IMG/VR virus record: IMGVR_UViG_3300008050_000030
Length of the DNA stretch: 19,895 bases
Strand: one strand, 5' to 3'
DNA from: a virus
Part shown: in pieces, positions 8,380 through 18,691 of the stretch
How the letters are laid out: every line of letters begins with the position of its first letter
Numbering within the stretch: position 1 is the first letter of the stretch
Notes under the pieces: generated by a model
The model's input: only the letters and a program-made list of their open reading frames with translations
What the model was told of the DNA's origin: nothing
Databases searched by the model: none
Position numbers and translations under genes: made by a program

Positions 8380-9324
8380 ATGCCCGGTGGACGGCCCAAG
8401 AAGATCAAGCCCCCTTGCAAACTCGACGGCTGCGAGAAGCCATCGAAGTCCAGAGGGATGTGCGGCACGCACTACATGCAGCTCCGTCGCGGCGCCATCG
8501 ACGAGCGCGGTGCCTCGCTGCGGCCCATGAAGCAGGGCCGGGACGGCGGCTGTGAAGTCGATGGCTGCGGTGACCCGATCGTCGCCCGTCGGATGTGCAG
8601 CAAGCACTACCAGCGGCGGATGTCGGGCGCTTCGGGGGAGGCGAGAGAGCGCCACGCCAACCACTCCCGTGAAGGCGTGTGCAGGCTGGAGGGGTGCGGC
8701 AGGGAGATCGAGAATGGAAGAGTCCGGATGTGCCGTCGCCACTACGCGCAGTACTATCGCCGGATCATTGATGAGGACGGAGTCCGGCTCCGGGAGTTGA
8801 AGAGGGTCCCGTCAGCGGAGGGCCTGGCCTGTTCCGTCCCAGACTGCCACTCCCGGCCGACGAGGCGCGGCATGTGCCAGAAGCACCGGAGGCAGGAGCA
8901 GGCGGGCCTGATTGACGAGCAGGGCAACAAGCTCCGAGAGCACAAGACTCGGGGACGGCCCAGAAGGAAGGCCCGCTGGAGGACCTCGGGCGGGTACGTC
9001 CGCAAGCACGCGCCGGAGCACCCCAACGCCGACAAGTACGGCAACGTCCTGGAGCACCGTCTGGTGATGGAGGCCCATCTCGACCGACTTCTTGGCCCGA
9101 AGGAGGTCGTGCACCACATCAATGGGAAGCGGGACGACAACCGCCTGGAGAACCTGCAGCTGCGTCAGTGGACCACGCACCCTCCTGGATCAGAGCCCGT
9201 GGACGACATCGAGGCCGCCCTGGGGCTTCTGGAAGAGCGCTTGACCAAGAACACCACGGGCGGTGAGGCTCACTTGGAGAGGCTCCAGGACCTGCTCGAT
9301 CGGGAATCGGCCAGATCCGCGTGA
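8380..9324 (+). CDS. Free-standing HNH homing endonuclease with four N-terminal tandem Cys3His zinc-finger-like repeats.
   Basis: The C-terminus reads VVHHINGKRDDNRLENLQL, which is the HNH motif. There are four repeats of C-x3-(G/D)C-x7-9-C-x2-H(Y/R)-x3-RR. GGAGG lies 6 nt before the ATG at 8380; the ORF track's 8353 start lacks an RBS. Codon usage is rich in AGA and AGG, unlike neighbouring genes. The gene is flanked by a duplicated sheath 3' end. Confidence 0.85.
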   Translation: MPGGRPKKIKPPCKLDGCEKPSKSRGMCGTHYMQLRRGAIDERGASLRPMKQGRDGGCEVDGCGDPIVARRMCSKHYQRRMSGASGEARERHANHSREGVCRLEGCGREIENGRVRMCRRHYAQYYRRIIDEDGVRLRELKRVPSAEGLACSVPDCHSRPTRRGMCQKHRRQEQAGLIDEQGNKLREHKTRGRPRRKARWRTSGGYVRKHAPEHPNADKYGNVLEHRLVMEAHLDRLLGPKEVVHHINGKRDDNRLENLQLRQWTTHPPGSEPVDDIEAALGLLEERLTKNTTGGEAHLERLQDLLDRESARSA

Positions 9325-11113: not shown

Positions 11114-11851
11114 TCAGAAGGTGGAGCTGATGAAGCGCTTGTTCCACCAGGCGTAGCGGACCGCCGTGAAGCCCAGGGGCAGGGCCGACTGCGTCTTCCA
11201 GAGCAGCGACCCCTCGGAGGTCCACTCGATGTCCACTCCCGCCTCTACGTCGGCCTGGACAGCCTGCAGGACGGCCTGCTCCAGCTCGATGCCGAGTTCC
11301 ACCCGCCCCTCTCCGTAGAAGGAGAACTTCAGCCACTCGGCGTAGACCGTCGACTCGACGATGTCGACTTGCCGCTCGACGGGGAAGCCCGCGCGCCTGG
11401 ACTTCATCAGCCGCACCACCTCCCGCATGTCCCCGCAGTCCAGCGAGGAGTTGACCATCTGCAGGTAGTCCAGATCGGTCAGGTAGTCCGGCTCGCCGAT
11501 GCGGTTGAGCTCGTCGTGCACCAGCTTCTTCTGGGTCAGCGGACCCACCTGCACCTGGACCTGCTTGCCGACGGAGAGGCCGGCACGCAAGGAGGCGATC
11601 TGAGGCACCCCCACCTTCAGGCCGGCGTTCGGCACCGACACGGTGTGGGTCCAGTGGTCCAGCAGCGCGGAGGACTGCAGGGGCGGGCTGATGCTCAGGT
11701 CCTCGGGGAAGCAGTCCAGGTCCGCCAGGTGCTGCAGCACCTCGCCCTGGTTGTTCAGCAGGGTGCCAGGGGTGATGTCCTCGCTGGGGAGGCGGAGCAG
11801 GTAGATCCGGTGCTTCTTCAGGAAGCGTCGCAGGGGCTGAAGCAGGCTCAC
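11114..11851 (-). CDS. Hypothetical 245-aa protein, the terminal gene of the minus-strand unit, with its own strong RBS. It is a candidate effector or toxin-like cargo.
   Basis: A GTG start at 11851 is preceded by GAGGTGATCC, a near-perfect anti-SD complement. It is separated from the upstream RHH gene by a 123-bp spacer containing direct repeats. It has a basic N-terminal helix (LRRFLKKHRIYLLRLP) and an aromatic C-terminus (YAWWNKRFISSTF). I could not recognise a family. Confidence 0.6.
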   Translation of the reverse strand: MSLLQPLRRFLKKHRIYLLRLPSEDITPGTLLNNQGEVLQHLADLDCFPEDLSISPPLQSSALLDHWTHTVSVPNAGLKVGVPQIASLRAGLSVGKQVQVQVGPLTQKKLVHDELNRIGEPDYLTDLDYLQMVNSSLDCGDMREVVRLMKSRRAGFPVERQVDIVESTVYAEWLKFSFYGEGRVELGIELEQAVLQAVQADVEAGVDIEWTSEGSLLWKTQSALPLGFTAVRYAWWNKRFISSTF

Positions 11852-12402: not shown

Positions 12403-12827
12403 TCGTACACCCCCTGCCCGGCCGCCTTCAGCGCCGCCTCCTGCTGCATCCGCTCCATCACGGCGGCCCCGCGCGAGCGGGAGAGGGCGATGCCCATGAC
12501 GGCGCTCGCCTCGGTGGCGCCGAGGCGGAACACGGCGTCGACGGTGTCGTCGGTGACCAGCCCGGAGTACTCGGTGATCATGTACTGGCCCAGTCCCGCC
12601 CAGACGGAGGAGAGGAGCGCGTGGCTCTGCAGGGGCCGCGCCGACATCGTGGCCATCGACAGGGGCTTGATCACCTCGTCCTGCTTGATGGGGCCGGTGA
12701 CGGCCAGGAAGAAGGAGAGGCCGGCGTCGCTGAGGATCTGGGCCGCCTCCTCCAGCTTCTGCTGCATGGTGAGGGGGTCGGTGAGGTCAGGCATGTCGGC
12801 CATGCGGGTGGGGTCGTCGTCGATCAT
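12399..12827 (-). CDS. Hypothetical protein (142 aa).
   Basis: The ATG at 12827 lies in an ATGA overlap with the stop of the vWA gene. GC3 is high. No family was recognised. Confidence 0.5.
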   Translation of the reverse strand: MIDDDPTRMADMPDLTDPLTMQQKLEEAAQILSDAGLSFFLAVTGPIKQDEVIKPLSMATMSARPLQSHALLSSVWAGLGQYMITEYSGLVTDDTVDAVFRLGATEASAVMGIALSRSRGAAVMERMQQEAALKAAGQGVYE

Positions 12828-14671
12828 CGGGCTTTTCCTGTCAGGTACTGGTGGAAGAGCTTCTCCCCGAGCGACACGAGCGCCTGCCCGGCGGAATCGC
12901 AAGGGCACTGGGAGAAGAACTTGGTGGAGTGGGACATGAACATCGCGTCTTCGTAGCTGATCTGCCCTCCCACGTAGAGGGTCTGCACGCGGATTCCTTC
13001 GCGCATGGCCTCCATGATGTTGCGGCGGACGTGGGTCTTGGCCCCCGATCCGGTGGGAGCTCCGTCGGTCAGGTGGATGAGCTGACGGAAGCCGGTCTTC
13101 GTCATCAGCTCCCGGGCCGCCACGCGAATGGCGGTGTGTGATGGGGTGGAGCCTCCGAGGATCGTGTTGTCGTTGTTGGCGGGCATCTTGCGGATGGGGT
13201 GCCCCATCCGGTGGATGACCACTTCGCTATCCCAGCCGCCGTAGTAGATCCAGACCTGCCCCTCCACGCCGGGGAAGTTCAGGGCCTTGGCCAGCTGCAG
13301 CGCTGCTCGAGCTTCCTGCTCGAACAGAGAGCCCACCACGGACCCCGAGCCATCGAGCAGGAGCAGGTACTTGAAGCCCGGCAGAGGTCGGGGAGACCGG
13401 AAGATCGGCCCCTCCTTCGTCATGCGGCGCTGCACGGCGGCCTGGATGTCCACCGTCGTCCCTTCGTAGTCCAGGTGGGTGCGCTGCTTGCCGCGGATCT
13501 TGACGAACTTCGAGTGCAGCCGCGAGGTGATCGCCAACTCCTCTCCCGTCAGCACCCGCGGCACGAGCTGCGAGTCCTGGATGTCGTGGAGCTGGACCTT
13601 GGCCTTCGCGTCCTCCGTCAGCCACTCGTCCTTGTCGGGGACGTCGGACTGCCCCGACTGCAGATCAGCGATGGTCTGCAGCATGGCGGCAGCCGCCGCG
13701 GCCTGGGTGTCGGGGTTGTCCAGGTGCTGAGAACCCCCCATGGCTGCAGCAGCCTGAGCCTGCGCTGCAGGGTCAAAGCGGTGGGCGTCCAGCTTCTTCT
13801 TGACGTACCCCTCGACGGGCGTGTCGCTGTGCCCCTGGCTCTTGAGCAGGTCGATGTCGCCTTGGCCCAGCAGAGCCATGAGGCGCAGCGCCACGGCCTG
13901 CGTCACCGCGGGATCCTGCTGCCCCGGGTCGCCCAAGAGGGTGGCCACTGCCCCGGCACCGCTCGGGGCGTTCCCGGCAGGCTGAGCGGCGGCTCCCGTC
14001 TTCTGCGCGAAGCGGTCTCCCAGGAGCTTCGTCAGCTTGGACATCAGCTTGGCCGCCGCAGCCATGCAGGAGGTGAAGTCCGAGGAGACGCAGTCCAGGT
14101 ACGCCTGCTCGATGGCTGGTTGCACGGCCAGGAAGTCTGCGTCTGCGTCAGCGGGCGCCTGGCCGAACATGCAGCTCAGCATGAACTGGAAGAAGTCCTT
14201 CTTGGCTCCCTCCGTCTGCTCTCGGCCGATCCGCTTCCACCGCGCCACCAGGAGGTCGTAGTCCCCCGGGTTGAACTGGCCCCACCAGTAGGCGACGCGG
14301 TTGTCGTCCAGGATGTTCACGACGTGGTGGATGAAGGCGGCCAGGGGCTCCGTCTGCCCCGAGAGGGTGCGGTCTCCCTTGGCCAGGAAGTCCGTGATGA
14401 TCCGGTCCGCCAGCTTGGTGGTGAAGTGGTGCATCGCCTCGATGTTCGAGCCGAAGACGATGTGGCTCAGCTCGTGGCCCGCCACGAGCCATGCCTCGGG
14501 GTCGGCGAGAGGCACGTTGACCTGCCGGCCGTCGGTGCTGCCGAAGGGAGCGTCGCGGAGCCAGATGGGCTGGCCGAGGGCTTTGCTGGTGGTGTTGACG
14601 AGCTTGTAGCAAGCGTCCTTCGTCTGCCACGCGGGTCCGCGCAGCGACGCTGGGAGAGTGAAGTCGGCCAC
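12824..14671 (-). CDS. CobT/NorD/CbbO-like partner protein (615 aa) with a C-terminal von Willebrand factor A domain and an N-terminal region containing an HExxH motif.
   Basis: The C-terminal vWA domain has the MIDAS motif LLLDGSGSV, followed by ...GGSTPSHTAI... and ...IHLTDGAPTG. The N-terminal region contains AGHELSHIVFGSNIEAMHH. The GTG start at 14671 is preceded by GAGGAGG. Its size matches phage and bacterial CobT-like vWA partners of AAA_5 ATPases. Confidence 0.75.
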   Translation of the reverse strand: MADFTLPASLRGPAWQTKDACYKLVNTTSKALGQPIWLRDAPFGSTDGRQVNVPLADPEAWLVAGHELSHIVFGSNIEAMHHFTTKLADRIITDFLAKGDRTLSGQTEPLAAFIHHVVNILDDNRVAYWWGQFNPGDYDLLVARWKRIGREQTEGAKKDFFQFMLSCMFGQAPADADADFLAVQPAIEQAYLDCVSSDFTSCMAAAAKLMSKLTKLLGDRFAQKTGAAAQPAGNAPSGAGAVATLLGDPGQQDPAVTQAVALRLMALLGQGDIDLLKSQGHSDTPVEGYVKKKLDAHRFDPAAQAQAAAAMGGSQHLDNPDTQAAAAAAMLQTIADLQSGQSDVPDKDEWLTEDAKAKVQLHDIQDSQLVPRVLTGEELAITSRLHSKFVKIRGKQRTHLDYEGTTVDIQAAVQRRMTKEGPIFRSPRPLPGFKYLLLLDGSGSVVGSLFEQEARAALQLAKALNFPGVEGQVWIYYGGWDSEVVIHRMGHPIRKMPANNDNTILGGSTPSHTAIRVAARELMTKTGFRQLIHLTDGAPTGSGAKTHVRRNIMEAMREGIRVQTLYVGGQISYEDAMFMSHSTKFFSQCPCDSAGQALVSLGEKLFHQYLTGKAR

Positions 14672-15260: not shown

Positions 15261-15665
15261 TCAGGTGTGGTCGAAGACGATGAGCATCTGCCCCTCGGGC
15301 AGGCGCACATCGAGGTGCTCTTGTACGTGATCCCTCAGCACGCCCCAGAGACGTCGGGCCTGGCTGATCTTCGGCTGCAGCTCGAGCATCGTCCAGCAGA
15401 CGCTGTCGAGCTGCATGCGCAGGGCCACGATGCCCATCCACTTCTCGTCGCAGTCGGGGGAGCTGCTCTCGAAGGAGAGGTTCTCCAGCTCCGGGGGACA
15501 GGTCGCCAAGAAGTCGTCCCAGTTGTCGACCCAAGAGCCGAACTTCATGCCCCCCTCGACGGGGAACTCCTCGGGGGGAGCGACCCCCCAGATCACGGCT
15601 GCGAAGCACTCGCCCATTGGCCGTTCTCCTCGTGGTTGAAGGGTAAGAGGAAGACGCAGCTGCAT
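15261..15665 (-). CDS. Hypothetical protein (134 aa; alternative start at 15617 giving 118 aa).
   Basis: The ATG at 15665 overlaps the stop of the RNR-fragment gene by 1 nt (TGATG). An alternative ATG at 15617 has GAGGAG upstream. Confidence 0.45.
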   Translation of the reverse strand: MQLRLPLTLQPRGERPMGECFAAVIWGVAPPEEFPVEGGMKFGSWVDNWDDFLATCPPELENLSFESSSPDCDEKWMGIVALRMQLDSVCWTMLELQPKISQARRLWGVLRDHVQEHLDVRLPEGQMLIVFDHT

Positions 15666-16465
15666 CAGCTACATCCGCTGGTCGCTCCGCAGTCCTCGCA
15701 GACACCGCAGGTGCCGGACTGCTTCATCCGCATGCTCCCGCAATGGGAGCAGCTGTCGCCGGTGTAGCCGGCCCCCACCGCAATCTCCCGCGACATCGTG
15801 ACCGCGGGAGCGTGAGGGTTGCCCTTCCACGCCTCTGCGGCATCGAACTTCGCTACGGCCTCTGGAGCCGGCCCCTCTACGGGAGTGAGCAGCTCCTTGG
15901 AGGGGTGGCCCAGGGTGTCAGGACGGAGGTTCTCCTCGGTGACGTCGGTGTGCGCGAGGTCGGCCATGCCCAGGTAGCTGATGGCCAGCTCCCGGAAGAT
16001 GTAATCGACCACGGAGGTCGACATCTTGATCCGGTCGTTGCCCGTCACCATCCCGCTCGGCTCGAACCGGCTGAAGATGAACAGGTGCACGAACTTCTCC
16101 AGGGGCACTCCGTGCTGGAGACCCAGGGAGACCGCGATGCCGAAGCAGTTCATCAGCGACCGGAAGGCCGCGCCCTCCTTGTGCATGTCGACGAAGATCT
16201 CGCCGAGCGTGCCGTCCTCGTACTCTCCCGTCTTGAGGAAGATCTTGTGGCCGGCGACGCGCGCCTTCTGGGTGTAGCCCTGACGCCTGTCCGGGAGGCG
16301 TCGTCGAGAGGTCTTCTCCGCCAGAGCCTTCCAGAGCAGCTCCGGACACCGCCGGTCGACGGTGCCCTCGGCGGTCGACTCGCAGTGGCGGCAGTAGGCC
16401 ACCACTGCGCCGTCGCCGTCCGGCTCGACCCAGTCGTGATCGTACTTGGGGTCGAAGTCCGCCAC
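15665..16465 (-). CDS. Orphan C-terminal segment of a ribonucleotide reductase large subunit, most like class II adenosylcobalamin-dependent NrdJ (a split NrdJb-like piece), with a Cys-rich C-terminal tail.
   Basis: The block [112 protein letters not shown] matches the conserved C-terminal core of RNR alpha subunits. The tail [28 protein letters not shown] resembles RNR C-terminal redox or Zn tails. The GTG start is preceded by GAGGAGG. No N-terminal catalytic half of an RNR is present in this window. Confidence 0.6.
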
Positions 16466-16711
16466 CTAGTCCTCCTCGGCCTCGAAGTAGGCGAGGTCCA
16501 GGCCGGCGAGGCACTGGTCGAGCAGGTCGAAGCCGTTGGCGTACTCCACCTCGATCTTCGTGGGGACGGAGTAGCTGTCCTCCATGCCCTCGATCTCGGC
16601 CTTGCAGTCCTTGCGGCTCTTGGCCCGGACGTGGGTGGGCTCCTCGACGTTGCCGTCCTCGTCCTCTTCGTACTCGGTCAGGTCCTTGGCGAGCCAGTAG
16701 GTGAGCTTCAT
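16466..16711 (-). CDS. Hypothetical small, highly acidic protein (81 aa), a candidate DNA-mimic-type protein.
   Basis: The ATG lies in an ATGA overlap with the upstream stop. The composition includes YEEDEDGNVEEP and YFEAEED. Its stop TAG directly abuts the GTG start of the RNR fragment. Confidence 0.5.
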   Translation of the reverse strand: MKLTYWLAKDLTEYEEDEDGNVEEPTHVRAKSRKDCKAEIEGMEDSYSVPTKIEVEYANGFDLLDQCLAGLDLAYFEAEED

Positions 16712-17097
16712 GTGTCTTCTCCGGTGAGGGGGCGGATCATGTAGATCTCGTCCCCGGTTGCGCTGTCGTGGTGGAAGTTCTGCAGGCGGATCTGCTGACC
16801 CGCCATGTCGATCCAGATCTTGAAGTGGCACTCGGTCTTGGGGAGGATCTGCCGCAGCATCTCCTCGGCGTGTTCGGCGATGAACTCCTTCTGGCCGTTC
16901 GACTTTCGCCAGCCGAAGTCCTTGACCGTGGCGAGCCAGCGGCAGTCCTGCGGCATCATGCCATCGATGTGATCCTGGAAGCTCTCCAGGAACAGGGTCC
17001 ACAGTGCGGGGCCGTCCTCGCCGCTCTCCTCATCCTCGAAGCCCCAGGACAGGTTGGGCTCTCCGAACTCGGGCTCTCCGAAGGTAGGCAGCGACAT
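16708..17097 (-). CDS. Hypothetical protein (129 aa).
   Basis: The ATG at 17097 overlaps the upstream stop by 1 nt (TGATG). AAGGAGG lies 5 nt upstream. The N-terminus is acidic. Confidence 0.55.
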   Translation of the reverse strand: MSLPTFGEPEFGEPNLSWGFEDEESGEDGPALWTLFLESFQDHIDGMMPQDCRWLATVKDFGWRKSNGQKEFIAEHAEEMLRQILPKTECHFKIWIDMAGQQIRLQNFHHDSATGDEIYMIRPLTGEDT

Positions 17098-17693
17098 CAG
17101 CCCTCCTTGAGGCACCCGCACACGAAGCGGGCCTTGTTGTGTTCGACGCAGAGGCCGCACTGCCAGTGGCCGGGGGTGCCGACGGTGGGGCAGTTGAGCC
17201 TCTGCAGATCATCGTTGATCGGGTCTCTCCCGTGGAGAGCTCGGAACTCGTAGGCCGTGTAGGGATTCTCCTCCAGGTCCCGTTCCGGCCCCCCCAGCGT
17301 GATGTCGATGGTGATGGTGGTGAGGGGGTGCTCCAGCACGAGATCGTACTCAAAGAGGGAGTAGACGATCTTGGTCGGGTCCTCCTCGTCCACTTCCACG
17401 GTGACCTCGCGGGTCACGGAGTCGGGGCAGACGCGCCCGACCCGTGACCCCTCGGCGGTGTAGAGGCTCCCGTCCCCCTCCAGGCGCGCCCCTTGGGAAC
17501 GGAACCACAGCTGGAGCAGCGCCCAGTCCTGTGCCTTGTTGTGGGGGCCGGTCCTCATCTGATGGTCGCGAAGAAGCTCCTCGAGCTTCGCCTGCAGGGC
17601 TGCCAGGAACCCCGCGTTGATGTTGAACCTTCCGATGTAGCCGGTCAGCGTGTCCCGGACGATGCCCAGGAACTCCTCGTCCTGGGCAGACAT
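17097..17693 (-). CDS. Cys-rich (zinc-ribbon-like) protein of 198 aa. Its N-terminal helix and a central strand mimic the conserved C-terminal domain of the tail sheath protein.
   Basis: The ATG at 17693 overlaps the AAA+ gene stop by 1 nt (TGATG). FLGIVRDTLTGYIGRFNINAGFLAALQAKLEELL aligns with sheath FLRNALRNLIGRFNITPQFLNNLATVIQGQL, and HPLTTITIDITL aligns with sheath TPLYPANQIRVTL. The C-terminal cluster is C-x11-C-x2-C-x9-C-x-C. The ORF-track 505-aa ORF at 17097..18614 is a frame artefact upstream of this start. Confidence 0.6.
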   Translation of the reverse strand: MSAQDEEFLGIVRDTLTGYIGRFNINAGFLAALQAKLEELLRDHQMRTGPHNKAQDWALLQLWFRSQGARLEGDGSLYTAEGSRVGRVCPDSVTREVTVEVDEEDPTKIVYSLFEYDLVLEHPLTTITIDITLGGPERDLEENPYTAYEFRALHGRDPINDDLQRLNCPTVGTPGHWQCGLCVEHNKARFVCGCLKEG

Positions 17694-18691
17694 CAGGGAG
17701 TCGCCTTCCGGCGCTTCTTGGGCTTCGGCTTGGCCTTGGGCACGTCCAGCACGTTGAGGCTGGCGACGTCGACCCCCATGCGCGCCTGCACCTTCTTGAC
17801 GTAGAACTCGCGCTGCTGCGCTTCCTCGAACTTGAAGGTGGACAGGAGCAGCGCCTTGGGCACCCCCCAGAGTGCTGCGTTGCGGCAGATCTGGTGCAGG
17901 TCGGACGTGGACAGCGAGTACTCGAACGTCCCCGTCCGGGTGTCGCCGGCGAGCTCCAGCAGCATCGAGACGAAGGGCTTGTCGCCCGCGACCTTCTCGG
18001 CGAAGACGGCGTCCGGGATGGCCTTGTCGTCGTCGCAGGCCGAGGCCCGCAGCCCCATCAGGATCTTCAGCTCTTGCTCCTTGGGCGGGTAGTCCAGGAA
18101 GATGGGCTGCACGCGCCGCTTGAAGTCGTCGTTCAGGGCGTTGGTGCCTCCGTAGGCGCTGGGGTTCATGGTCATCACGACCCAGAGCTTCGCGCCGATG
18201 TCGAGGCTGAAGGCGCGGCCCAGCTTGTGGACGTTGATCGTCCCCTGGAAGTCCAGGAGCGGGTTCAGCGTCTTCTGGGTCTGGGGCCGCAGGGCGTTGA
18301 CCTCGTTGATGAGCAGGATGGCACCGTCGCCGGCCTCGGTCTTGGCGACGAAGCGCTCGTGCATCTCGTTGGCCACTTCGATGGCCGTGGTGAGGGCTCC
18401 GAGCCCGAAGAACGAGGTGTCCCCCTCGAGGCCGAAGGCGCCGATGAGGTCGAGGTCGCGGGTCTCTTCGGTGCAGCTGTACTCGATGATGGGCAGCCCC
18501 GTCTCCTGAGCGAGGGCGTAGACGGACATGCTCTTCGCCATGCCCGTGGGGCCGACGACGAGCAGGGGGTCGTGGAAGGTGGACTGGCGGAGGAACCCCA
18601 GAAGGCCGGTGCAATCGACGTAGGGGACTTCCGCCTGGAAGTAGGACTCGAGCGGCATGCGGCGCAGCTCGTAGGCAGCCTGATCAGACAA
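17693..18691 (-). CDS. CobS/CbbQ/NorQ-like MoxR-family AAA+ ATPase (AAA_5 type) with a lysine-rich C-terminal tail.
   Basis: The Walker A motif reads LLVVGPTGMAKS, the Walker B and sensor region reads AILLINEVNALRPQTQKTLNPLL, and a CobS-like MTMNPSAYGGTNALNDDFKRR motif is present. The C-terminus is KAKPKPKKRRKATP. The start is either TTG at 18691, with GGAGAG upstream, or ATG at 18658. It is the first gene of the minus-strand operon. Confidence 0.8.
   Translation of the reverse strand: MSDQAAYELRRMPLESYFQAEVPYVDCTGLLGFLRQSTFHDPLLVVGPTGMAKSMSVYALAQETGLPIIEYSCTEETRDLDLIGAFGLEGDTSFFGLGALTTAIEVANEMHERFVAKTEAGDGAILLINEVNALRPQTQKTLNPLLDFQGTINVHKLGRAFSLDIGAKLWVVMTMNPSAYGGTNALNDDFKRRVQPIFLDYPPKEQELKILMGLRASACDDDKAIPDAVFAEKVAGDKPFVSMLLELAGDTRTGTFEYSLSTSDLHQICRNAALWGVPKALLLSTFKFEEAQQREFYVKKVQARMGVDVASLNVLDVPKAKPKPKKRRKATP

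Follow-up and report, generated by a model that had tools for sequence, protein, structure and literature searches.

We analysed a 19,895-nucleotide stretch of viral DNA (IMG/VR record IMGVR_UViG_3300008050_000030; hereafter the window, meaning the whole stretch) and found that an open reading frame (ORF) of 266 codons on its minus strand encodes a true NrdJb-type module of a class II (adenosylcobalamin-dependent) ribonucleotide reductase (RNR). The gene is functional and under purifying selection, has no gene for the catalytic half in the DNA around it, and sits in an interval where its alleles are exchanged independently of the flanking genes. On balance, and with guarded confidence, we favour the reading that this phage NrdJb works in trans as a re-reduction subunit, serving a class II RNR whose gene lies elsewhere, in the phage or in the host; that it acts in trans on an RNR, and which partner it has, is what we infer. 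To our knowledge, the split class II RNRs known so far always have their halves side by side. A split NrdJ and the architecture of NrdJb are already known, while an unlinked and mobile phage NrdJb, its fusion to a new small module and its recurrence in an unrelated lineage appear to be undescribed in the literature that we searched.

The identity of the 266-aa product rests on several profile matches. The product matched the NCBIfam NrdJ equivalog PRK07562 (E 8.9e-80, model positions 966-1104 of 1222), PRK06556 (E 2.6e-52, model positions 738-960 of 960) and PHROG 84, the RNR large subunit family (model positions 795-975 of 975), and its sole Pfam domain was TSCPD (PF12637; E 3.9e-10, 40.3 bits against a gathering score of 22.8). 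The NCBIfam RNR scores of 268.7, 177.7 and 34.1 bits lie far under the equivalog cut-offs of 1737, 859 and 961, and only the C-terminal ~220 positions are covered. The product has no catalytic barrel and gave no match to PF02867 (Ribonuc_red_lgC) in the Pfam scan. A first-pass annotation of the window had assigned the ORF to the C-terminal core of RNR large subunits; the C-terminal assignment stands, but the word core does not, as the match falls beyond the barrel, in its C-terminal extension, and not in the catalytic core. Homology to NrdJ begins at residue ~49-54, in a flexible linker and at the natural NrdJa/NrdJb boundary, and spans the protein to its last residue (the final Ser). The similarity to RNR far exceeds what chance would give.

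The IscU-like core of the product is 50-78% identical to many full-length NrdJ C-termini. An AlphaFold (AF2) model of the product, with a mean predicted local distance difference test (pLDDT) score of 74, contains a confident alpha+beta domain (residues ~63-165), a disordered linker and a confident terminal zinc-ribbon-like hairpin (residues 233-266), in other words a zinc finger behind an IscU/SufE-like domain. The combination of an IscU-like domain and a zinc finger is the architecture described for NrdJb and for long NrdJ C-termini (PMC9669993). The Cys-rich tail remarked upon in the first-pass annotation consists of C239, C242, C253, C256, C259 and C265, all of which are invariant in the phage family and in full-length NrdJ. 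At the position of the TSCPD motif the protein reads T150-S151-V-V-D154, without Cys, as do NrdJ C-termini. Sequence searches of the PDB with NrdJb, both as a single sequence and as a profile, returned no solved structure of the domain. Proteins of PF12637 carry a TSCPD motif and conserved cysteines that have been proposed to bind a metal cluster. Stand-alone TSCPD proteins of this family share the fold family of the phage protein, whereas the latter is without the motif Cys and possesses the NrdJ linker and zinc-finger tail. Because this linker and this tail are specific to NrdJ, the 266-aa protein is placed in the NrdJ branch and not among the generic small TSCPD proteins.

The ORF was confirmed as first described, with a GTG start at 16465, a TGA stop at 15665-15667 and the same translation. 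Its third-position GC of 0.89 is like that of the other genes of the window, which has a G+C content of 67%. NrdJb is the fifth gene in a tightly packed co-directional run that extends from 18691 down to 11114. Translational coupling had been proposed on both sides of the gene. Upstream, the TAG of the preceding gene (16466-68) does abut the NrdJb GTG (16463-65); the downstream TGATG is doubtful as a coupling signal, as the gene caller and all homologues place the start of the next gene at 15617, ~40-50 nt past the TGATG and behind its own GAGGAG.

Intact copies of the NrdJb gene occur on at least 10 related high-GC jumbo-phage contigs, including one of 303 kb. Nine orthologues, sharing 50-88% identity, all keep the IscU-like core and every tail cysteine, and the pairwise dN/dS across them was 0.14 in the closest pair, with values of 0.2-0.5 where pairs were saturated. 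Because the gene is intact in so many lineages and its dN/dS values are of this order, it is not a pseudogene, which the first-pass annotation had named as the alternative to a functional split. Proteins of this kind, ~270 aa in length, are annotated by JGI as 'ribonucleoside-diphosphate reductase alpha chain'.

No RNR catalytic domain was detected in the window, either by Pfam scans of all larger ORFs or by tblastn and an NrdJa hidden Markov model (HMM) in six frames, which bears out the earlier remark that the catalytic half is absent from it. The window corresponds to the opening 19,895 nt of the ENA metagenome contig ERZ27249009 k141_382418 (188,377 bp), on which an exact match to the 266-aa product, P0001, is encoded. 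Positions 1-26465 of this contig were examined, and the precomputed Pfam labels available for positions 5665-26465 include no Ribonuc_red family. Related contigs (L002-L007, L068-L078) were examined over +-10 kb around the NrdJb orthologue, and no Ribonuc_red_lgC or NrdJa-like ORF was found in these intervals. The NrdJa HMM, comprising 25 sequences, was run over the six-frame ORFs of every fetched locus, together with tblastn; among these loci only L029 and L064 matched, and both carry adjacent or intein-interrupted nrdJ genes. The DNA upstream of NrdJb encodes unrelated small acidic proteins and holds no barrel remnants in any frame, and tblastn of NrdJb retrieved only full-length NrdJ genes. 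As there is no catalytic gene nearby, the partner would therefore be distant in the phage genome or encoded by the host. Two short bacterial homologues, P0029 and P0050, were considered as true splits and rejected, being frameshift fragments of full-length nrdJ on long-read contigs, with Ribonuc_red_2_N and Ribonuc_red_lgC pieces directly upstream. On these contigs of 275-474 kb, nrdJ is broken into several small ORFs (P0050, L147 4533-5699; P0029, L148 2079-5693).

Comparison of the related contigs placed the phage NrdJb in two kinds of genomic slot. In type A (the window, i.e. L001; L005, which equals L074; L006; L068/69; L070; L077/78) the order of genes is a divergent glycosyltransferase (GT2), the ATPase, variable small genes, NrdJb, the vWA protein and genes for proteins of 142, 65 and 245 aa. 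In type B (L002/3 and L072/73) the order is NT5C, two small genes, NrdJb, rIIA and rIIB, with ThyA further along, and there is no ATPase/vWA pair within 10 kb. In a more distant rIIA relative, NrdJb is absent upstream. The loci L149-L152 have the same syntenic block from GT2 and the ATPase through the vWA gene to the 245-aa gene, with just a gene of 85-101 aa between ATPase and vWA and no NrdJb HMM match within 10 kb. Compared with the window, their ATPase is 49% and their 245-aa protein 35-41% identical, and two of these contigs come from assemblies with accessions closely neighbouring that of the window.

Exchange is seen at locus L068. Its ATPase and vWA protein are 95% and 92% identical to those of L005, against 65% for NrdJb; the corresponding values relative to the window are 83%, 72% and 58%. 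The NrdJb of L068 instead shares 79% identity with the allele that L002 carries in its type-B slot, and a 119-aa small gene also matches L002 (56%), as compared over L068 8659-10870 and L002 9361-10864. The interval from ATPase to vWA is thus a recombination mosaic in which NrdJb alleles have been exchanged independently of the flanking genes. Owing to the type-A and type-B slots, the blocks without NrdJb and the swapping of alleles, we regard NrdJb as a mobile accessory cassette. Its position inside the ATPase/vWA block is best explained as insertion into a recombination-prone variable slot and not as membership of the machine.

Ahead of the NrdJ homology, the phage protein carries an N-terminal extension common to type-A and type-B NrdJb proteins. 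In the phage family, H10, W12, C25, C28, C40 and P41 are invariant and give the motif HxW...CxxC...ECPxRLRxAL. AF2 confidence for the extension is low, helix 40-55 excepted. A profile of the extension, searched against 1.84 billion representative proteins, also matched small metagenomic proteins whose remainders are unrelated (P0250-P0253; whole-library E 4e-6 to 8e-4), and hhalign gave a probability of 96% for the extension against the module of these proteins. They are P0251 (177 aa), P0253 (174 aa), P0252 (329 aa, with the module internal) and P0250 (129 aa, with two copies), and no known domains were detected in them. Since it is also found on unrelated small proteins, the extension is taken as an independent module; this stretch of ~50 aa is an undescribed, probably metal-binding domain that has become fused to NrdJb. 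Homology of the extension to the end of the RNR barrel, suggested by MAFFT, was discarded, as BLASTP alignments show none.

An orphan NrdJb was also found in a second, unrelated lineage. About 15 low-GC (40%) IMG/VR viral contigs carry an NrdJb of 215-250 aa between DnaB and SSB, which begins right at the split boundary and is without the N-terminal module. For one of them, IMGVR_UViG_3300037427_002351, the whole contig of 51,186 bp was rebuilt from five overlapping loci (L087, L081, L046, L084 and L146). It encodes terminase, portal-like, major head, adaptor and tail-fibre genes. No NrdJa HMM match was obtained on it even at E 10, and no terminal repeat was found; it is probably a near-complete phage contig that has NrdJb without NrdJa. 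Two giant ORFs, of 2,915 and 2,526 aa, were also observed on this contig.

In the reading that we favour, the IscU-like domain would dock on a class II RNR catalytic subunit and the zinc-organised tail would swing a cysteine pair into the active site, delivering reducing equivalents after each turnover, while the N-terminal module may add a lineage-specific contact. The catalytic partner may be of the NrdJa type and encoded at a distance in the same phage genome, whose size is at least 188-303 kb, or it may be the NrdJ of the host; with either partner, the supply of deoxynucleoside triphosphates (dNTPs) would be supported during infection. We consider the two about equally likely. A host partner is favoured by the accessory and shuffled nature of the gene and by the 51-kb contig that lacks NrdJa, and a phage-encoded one by the jumbo genome size and the nucleotide-metabolism content.

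Precedents for such a subunit exist in bacteria. Within NrdJ, the module combines an IscU-like domain, by which it docks and oligomerises on the catalytic subunit, with a zinc-structured tail of six cysteines, a pair of which carries reducing equivalents to the active site after every turnover. The NrdJb of P. aeruginosa (229 aa) serves NrdJa (734 aa) by dithiol exchange and is required in vivo (PMC4520616). In the S. nassauensis NrdJ, electron transfer is possible between subunits; the array C920/923/933/936/939/945 is zinc-binding, and turnover with tris(2-carboxyethyl)phosphine (TCEP) depends on each of its six cysteines, the authors proposing that four of them coordinate zinc and two form the redox pair (PMC5704485). 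The phage protein resembles the NrdJb of P. aeruginosa and other proteobacteria in being a separate chain with an IscU-like domain and a Cys-rich zinc-finger tail (PMC9669993), and its boundary with respect to the P. aeruginosa protein is similar, lying before R-x-R-L-P-x-R-R-x-G-Y-T-Q-K, with a homologous part of ~215 aa. It differs in that the bacterial gene directly follows nrdJa in one operon whereas the phage gene has no nrdJa within at least 10 kb in any of the related contigs, and in that the phage protein has the N-terminal module of ~50 aa and its gene moves between slots. The six-Cys array is near-identical to that of the C-terminal CRD of full-length dimeric NrdJ, such as S. nassauensis NrdJd (x10 in the phage against x9 in the first gap); unlike the latter, the phage module is not covalently joined to a catalytic barrel. 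The statement in the first-pass annotation that known split nrdJ genes keep both pieces adjacent agrees with P. aeruginosa nrdJab (PMC4520616) and with Thermus phage phiYS40, where nrdJ-a and nrdJ-b are adjacent with a 12-nt gap (PMC3653736). Marine metagenomes have yielded intein-'fractured' nrdJ genes, which carry split inteins (PMC2677866). Like these, the present gene is phage-borne and represents nrdJ in more than one piece; they are adjacent or joined through split inteins with a homing endonuclease between, whereas here there is neither a neighbouring piece nor an intein signature. The features of the window discussed here are collected in Table 1.

Table 1. Coordinates of the NrdJb-like gene, its domains and signals, and the neighbouring genes in the window.
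Feature	Position	Strand	Description and basis
Stand-alone NrdJb-like gene	15665..16465	-	ORF and translation, 266 aa; NrdJ C-terminal homology
Shine-Dalgarno sequence GAGGAGGA	16470..16477	-	4 nt before the NrdJb GTG, within the 3' end of the upstream gene; strong; from sequence
N-terminal extension, residues 1-50	16316..16465	-	HxW/CxxC/(E)CPxxL; family alignments; no NrdJ counterpart
IscU/SufE-like alpha+beta domain (Pfam TSCPD), residues ~54-170	15956..16306	-	Name-giving Cys absent (TSVVDY)
Variable, poorly ordered linker, residues 171-232	15770..15955	-	Low conservation; pLDDT <50 at residues 183-198
Six-cysteine zinc-finger/redox tail, residues 233-266	15668..15769	-	GYTGDsC-x2-C-x10-C-x2-C-x2-C-x5-CS; pLDDT ~91
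Acidic 81-aa protein	16466..16711	-	TAG abuts the NrdJb GTG; variable cassette region; homologues at other positions in L068
MoxR-class AAA+ ATPase, 332 aa	17693..18691	-	First gene of the co-directional block; Pfam AAA_5, E 2e-14
615-aa vWA protein	12824..14671	-	N-terminal HExxH (H66, E67, H70); C-terminal vWA with metal ion-dependent adhesion site (MIDAS; D440, S442, S444)
245-aa protein, bacterial-gasdermin-like	11114..11851	-	Last gene of the block; PADLOC bGSDM PDLC02986, E 3.4e-11, residues 159-241

The ATPase and vWA genes that flank NrdJb had at first been placed in the CobS/CobT class of cobalt-chelatase-like chaperones. This assignment was not upheld, as no CobS or CobT model matched the ATPase or the 615-aa protein in Pfam or NCBIfam. 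The ATPase matched only AAA_5/AAA, GvpN and MadB-type models in these collections and the 615-aa protein gave a sub-threshold VWA match. The closest solved relatives of the ATPase by PDB sequence matches are midasin, CbbQ and NorQ, and its Walker A sequence is GPTGMAKS. Its AAA core matches PHROG 249, labelled 'porphyrin biosynthesis', which is the sole porphyrin-type match. Pfam scans revealed no CobN-like gene in the window, and the block bears no signatures of CobS/CobT/CobN. For the vWA protein, PDB profile matches were to integrin I-domains, and the best PDB fold match of its AF2 model was the NorD vWA domain in the NorQ-NorD complex (9qh6_G, E 1.5e-9). The pair is an AAA_5 ATPase with a MIDAS-bearing vWA partner, of the NorQD/CbbQO type, and is CobS/CobT-like only loosely. 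It resembles NorQ-NorD and CbbQ-CbbO in having an AAA_5 ATPase and a MIDAS vWA protein whose model best matches NorD, and it differs from them in the HExxH of the vWA protein, in the Asn or Ser that replaces Asp in the Walker B of the ATPase and in the gasdermin-like end of the block.

Several further observations were made on these neighbours. The Walker B aspartate is replaced by Asn or Ser (LLINE / MISE / LLNE) in all seven ATPase relatives, with Walker A and the following Glu kept (window 17693-18691 on the minus strand and the orthologues in L005, L006, L068, L070, L149 and L151). The HExxH region of the vWA protein is invariant in the alignment of its relatives. No relatives of the vWA family were found in IMG/VR or GTDB genomes; the JGI metagenomes yielded six vWA-family loci, all with the same arrangement. 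The 245-aa gene is present in all relatives, including those without NrdJb, and its product has no Pfam match and no PDB sequence match. Since the vWA protein encoded upstream of this gasdermin-like gene has an invariant HExxH, the block could represent a MoxR/vWA-peptidase plus gasdermin-like pore module in a phage. Following the ATPase at 17097-17693 on the minus strand is the gene for a 198-aa protein with a Cys/His-rich end (CPTVGTPGHWQCGLCVEHNKARFVCGC); L005 encodes a homologue and L074 contains a matching ORF, and the other type-A phages have neither. Homology of the window vWA protein to a DUF2201 protein of the low-GC phages was considered and could not be demonstrated (BLASTP E 0.033; hhalign probability 0.5%). 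The PHROGs label of the DUF2201 family, 'HNH endonuclease' (phrog_1314), looks like a misannotation. A 304-aa gene of the low-GC phage was likewise considered as an ATPase and rejected, as it is not one.

The content of the window reads as phage-like because it includes a gene for a 1,238-aa structural protein, whose C-terminus resembles phage structural and tail-sheath genes, an HNH endonuclease gene and numerous family-less genes. The largest related contig measures 303,591 bp and another 134 kb; contigs of up to this size indicate a high-GC jumbo-phage lineage. Among GenBank phages, no sequenced relative was found by megablast of the gene block or by tblastn of the vWA protein. A scan of the window for signals gave no promoter-like sites and no Rfam or tRNA matches, and terminator-like sites were not above shuffle expectation. 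The gene for a 314-aa HNH_3 endonuclease (8380-9324, plus strand) separates the gene of the 1,238-aa structural protein from its next neighbour. As no gene was called at this place in L005, L006, L068 and L070, it looks like a free-standing homing-endonuclease insertion.

Several findings weigh against a trans-acting re-reduction subunit. No partner catalytic subunit was seen in the 26 kb of the 188,377-bp contig or in the +-10 kb of the related contigs. When the S. nassauensis CRD was expressed separately it failed to reconstitute the truncated enzyme (PMC5704485), so action in trans cannot be taken for granted. Non-RNR proteins also carry the N-terminal module, which hints at targeting to another partner. 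Despite the swapping of alleles, all seven type-A loci still carry NrdJb in the AAA-vWA slot. An AAA+ ATPase (Walker A GVGKT) and a DUF2201_N/vWA protein are likewise encoded in the low-GC lineage, at 4.5-10 kb upstream of NrdJb, and 29 viral loci with full-length NrdJ show no AAA+/vWA pair in a motif-prefiltered check, their ATPases being only RecA, SbcCD-like and clamp-loader types, which gives a crude base rate. The last points bear on the suggestion, made in the first-pass annotation, that the fragment is an adaptor or bait for a remodelling machine. Recast in terms of the present neighbours, NrdJb would be the client adaptor of a NorQ/NorD-like MoxR-vWA remodeller, recruiting a class II RNR or B12-related client for cofactor loading or reactivation, or acting as a sensed decoy. 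NorQD and CbbQO offer a precedent, each being a MoxR-vWA pair that serves the maturation or repair of a single enzyme, and the place of NrdJb between ATPase and vWA has been kept while flanking genes have diverged to 39-55% identity. The two orphan lineages that have an AAA+/vWA pair keep the idea alive, though it rests on these two lineages and the crude base rate. It is weakened by the L149-L152 blocks, which retain ATPase, small gene, vWA and 245-aa gene without NrdJb, and by the type-B phages, which carry the same NrdJb with the same N-terminal module beside rIIA and rIIB and away from any such pair; moreover, alleles are swapped independently, the ATPase-vWA interval is a mosaic of unrelated small genes, and phage blocks are syntenic and tightly packed whatever the function. 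The independent lineages number just two. An obligatory link of NrdJb to the ATPase/vWA pair is not supported, and we hold the adaptor explanation to be quite unlikely.

Alternatively, the protein could be a host-directed modulator, a free CRD that competes with the C-terminal domain of the host NrdJ itself in docking or oligomerisation and thereby inhibits host dNTP synthesis or rewires it to a phage-supplied reductant, with the N-terminal zinc-type module as the new connection. The CRD drives NrdJ oligomerisation, and the physiological reductant of CRD-type NrdJ is not known (PMC5704485). An accessory, horizontally shuffled cassette is what many host-takeover genes look like, the fusion partner is a module found on other small phage-like proteins, and the 51-kb contig has NrdJb alone. 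Against this, conservation of the six tail cysteines and of the IscU-like core equals that in working enzymes, so that a role in the catalytic cycle fits better than simple blocking; we judge modulation unlikely. Distinctly unlikely, too, is a combined picture in which free NrdJb with a phage-specific zinc-type docking module is no half of a phage enzyme but a subunit-only takeover gene for the host B12-dependent RNR and, in the jumbo phages, perhaps also the client-recognition piece for a NorQD-like remodeller. Descent from a broken gene is very improbable. Bacterial P0029 and P0050 are indeed fragments of frameshifted nrdJ, and a non-functional remnant or assembly artefact of a full-length or frameshifted phage nrdJ could be imagined on their model, but the unrelated small proteins encoded upstream, without barrel remnants in any frame, speak against it, as do the gene's own Shine-Dalgarno sequence and start, the conserved added N-terminal module, dN/dS values well under 1 and the intact recurrence across contigs from different studies and assemblers. 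Hardly credible at all is the notion that the ORF is the C-terminal half of an intein-'fractured' gene, trans-spliced to a distant N-terminal half. Fractured nrdJ is on record from marine metagenomes (PMC2677866), and the extension of ~50 aa is about the size of a C-intein; it has, however, no intein/Hint match in Pfam and no His-Asn plus Cys/Ser/Thr junction, its conserved residues being H, W, C, C, C and P, it occurs N-terminally or internally on unrelated proteins, and NrdJ homology sets in again within the flexible linker, where NrdJa and NrdJb naturally part.

These results have consequences for annotation as well as for phage biology. The label 'alpha chain' given to such proteins is misleading when RNR class or phage lifestyle is deduced from metagenomes, and frameshifted nrdJ fragments imitate split genes in protein databases. 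Should the combined takeover and client-recognition picture prove true, it would be the first reactivase-type system for class II RNR, acting e.g. in cofactor exchange or reactivation. A re-reduction module of class II RNR circulates among phages as an independent, selected and mobile gene, in at least two unrelated lineages. If the module acts on a host enzyme, it would offer a handle on the physiological reductant of CRD-type NrdJ (PMC5704485), and phages could tune the dNTP supply through the electron-shuttle subunit alone.

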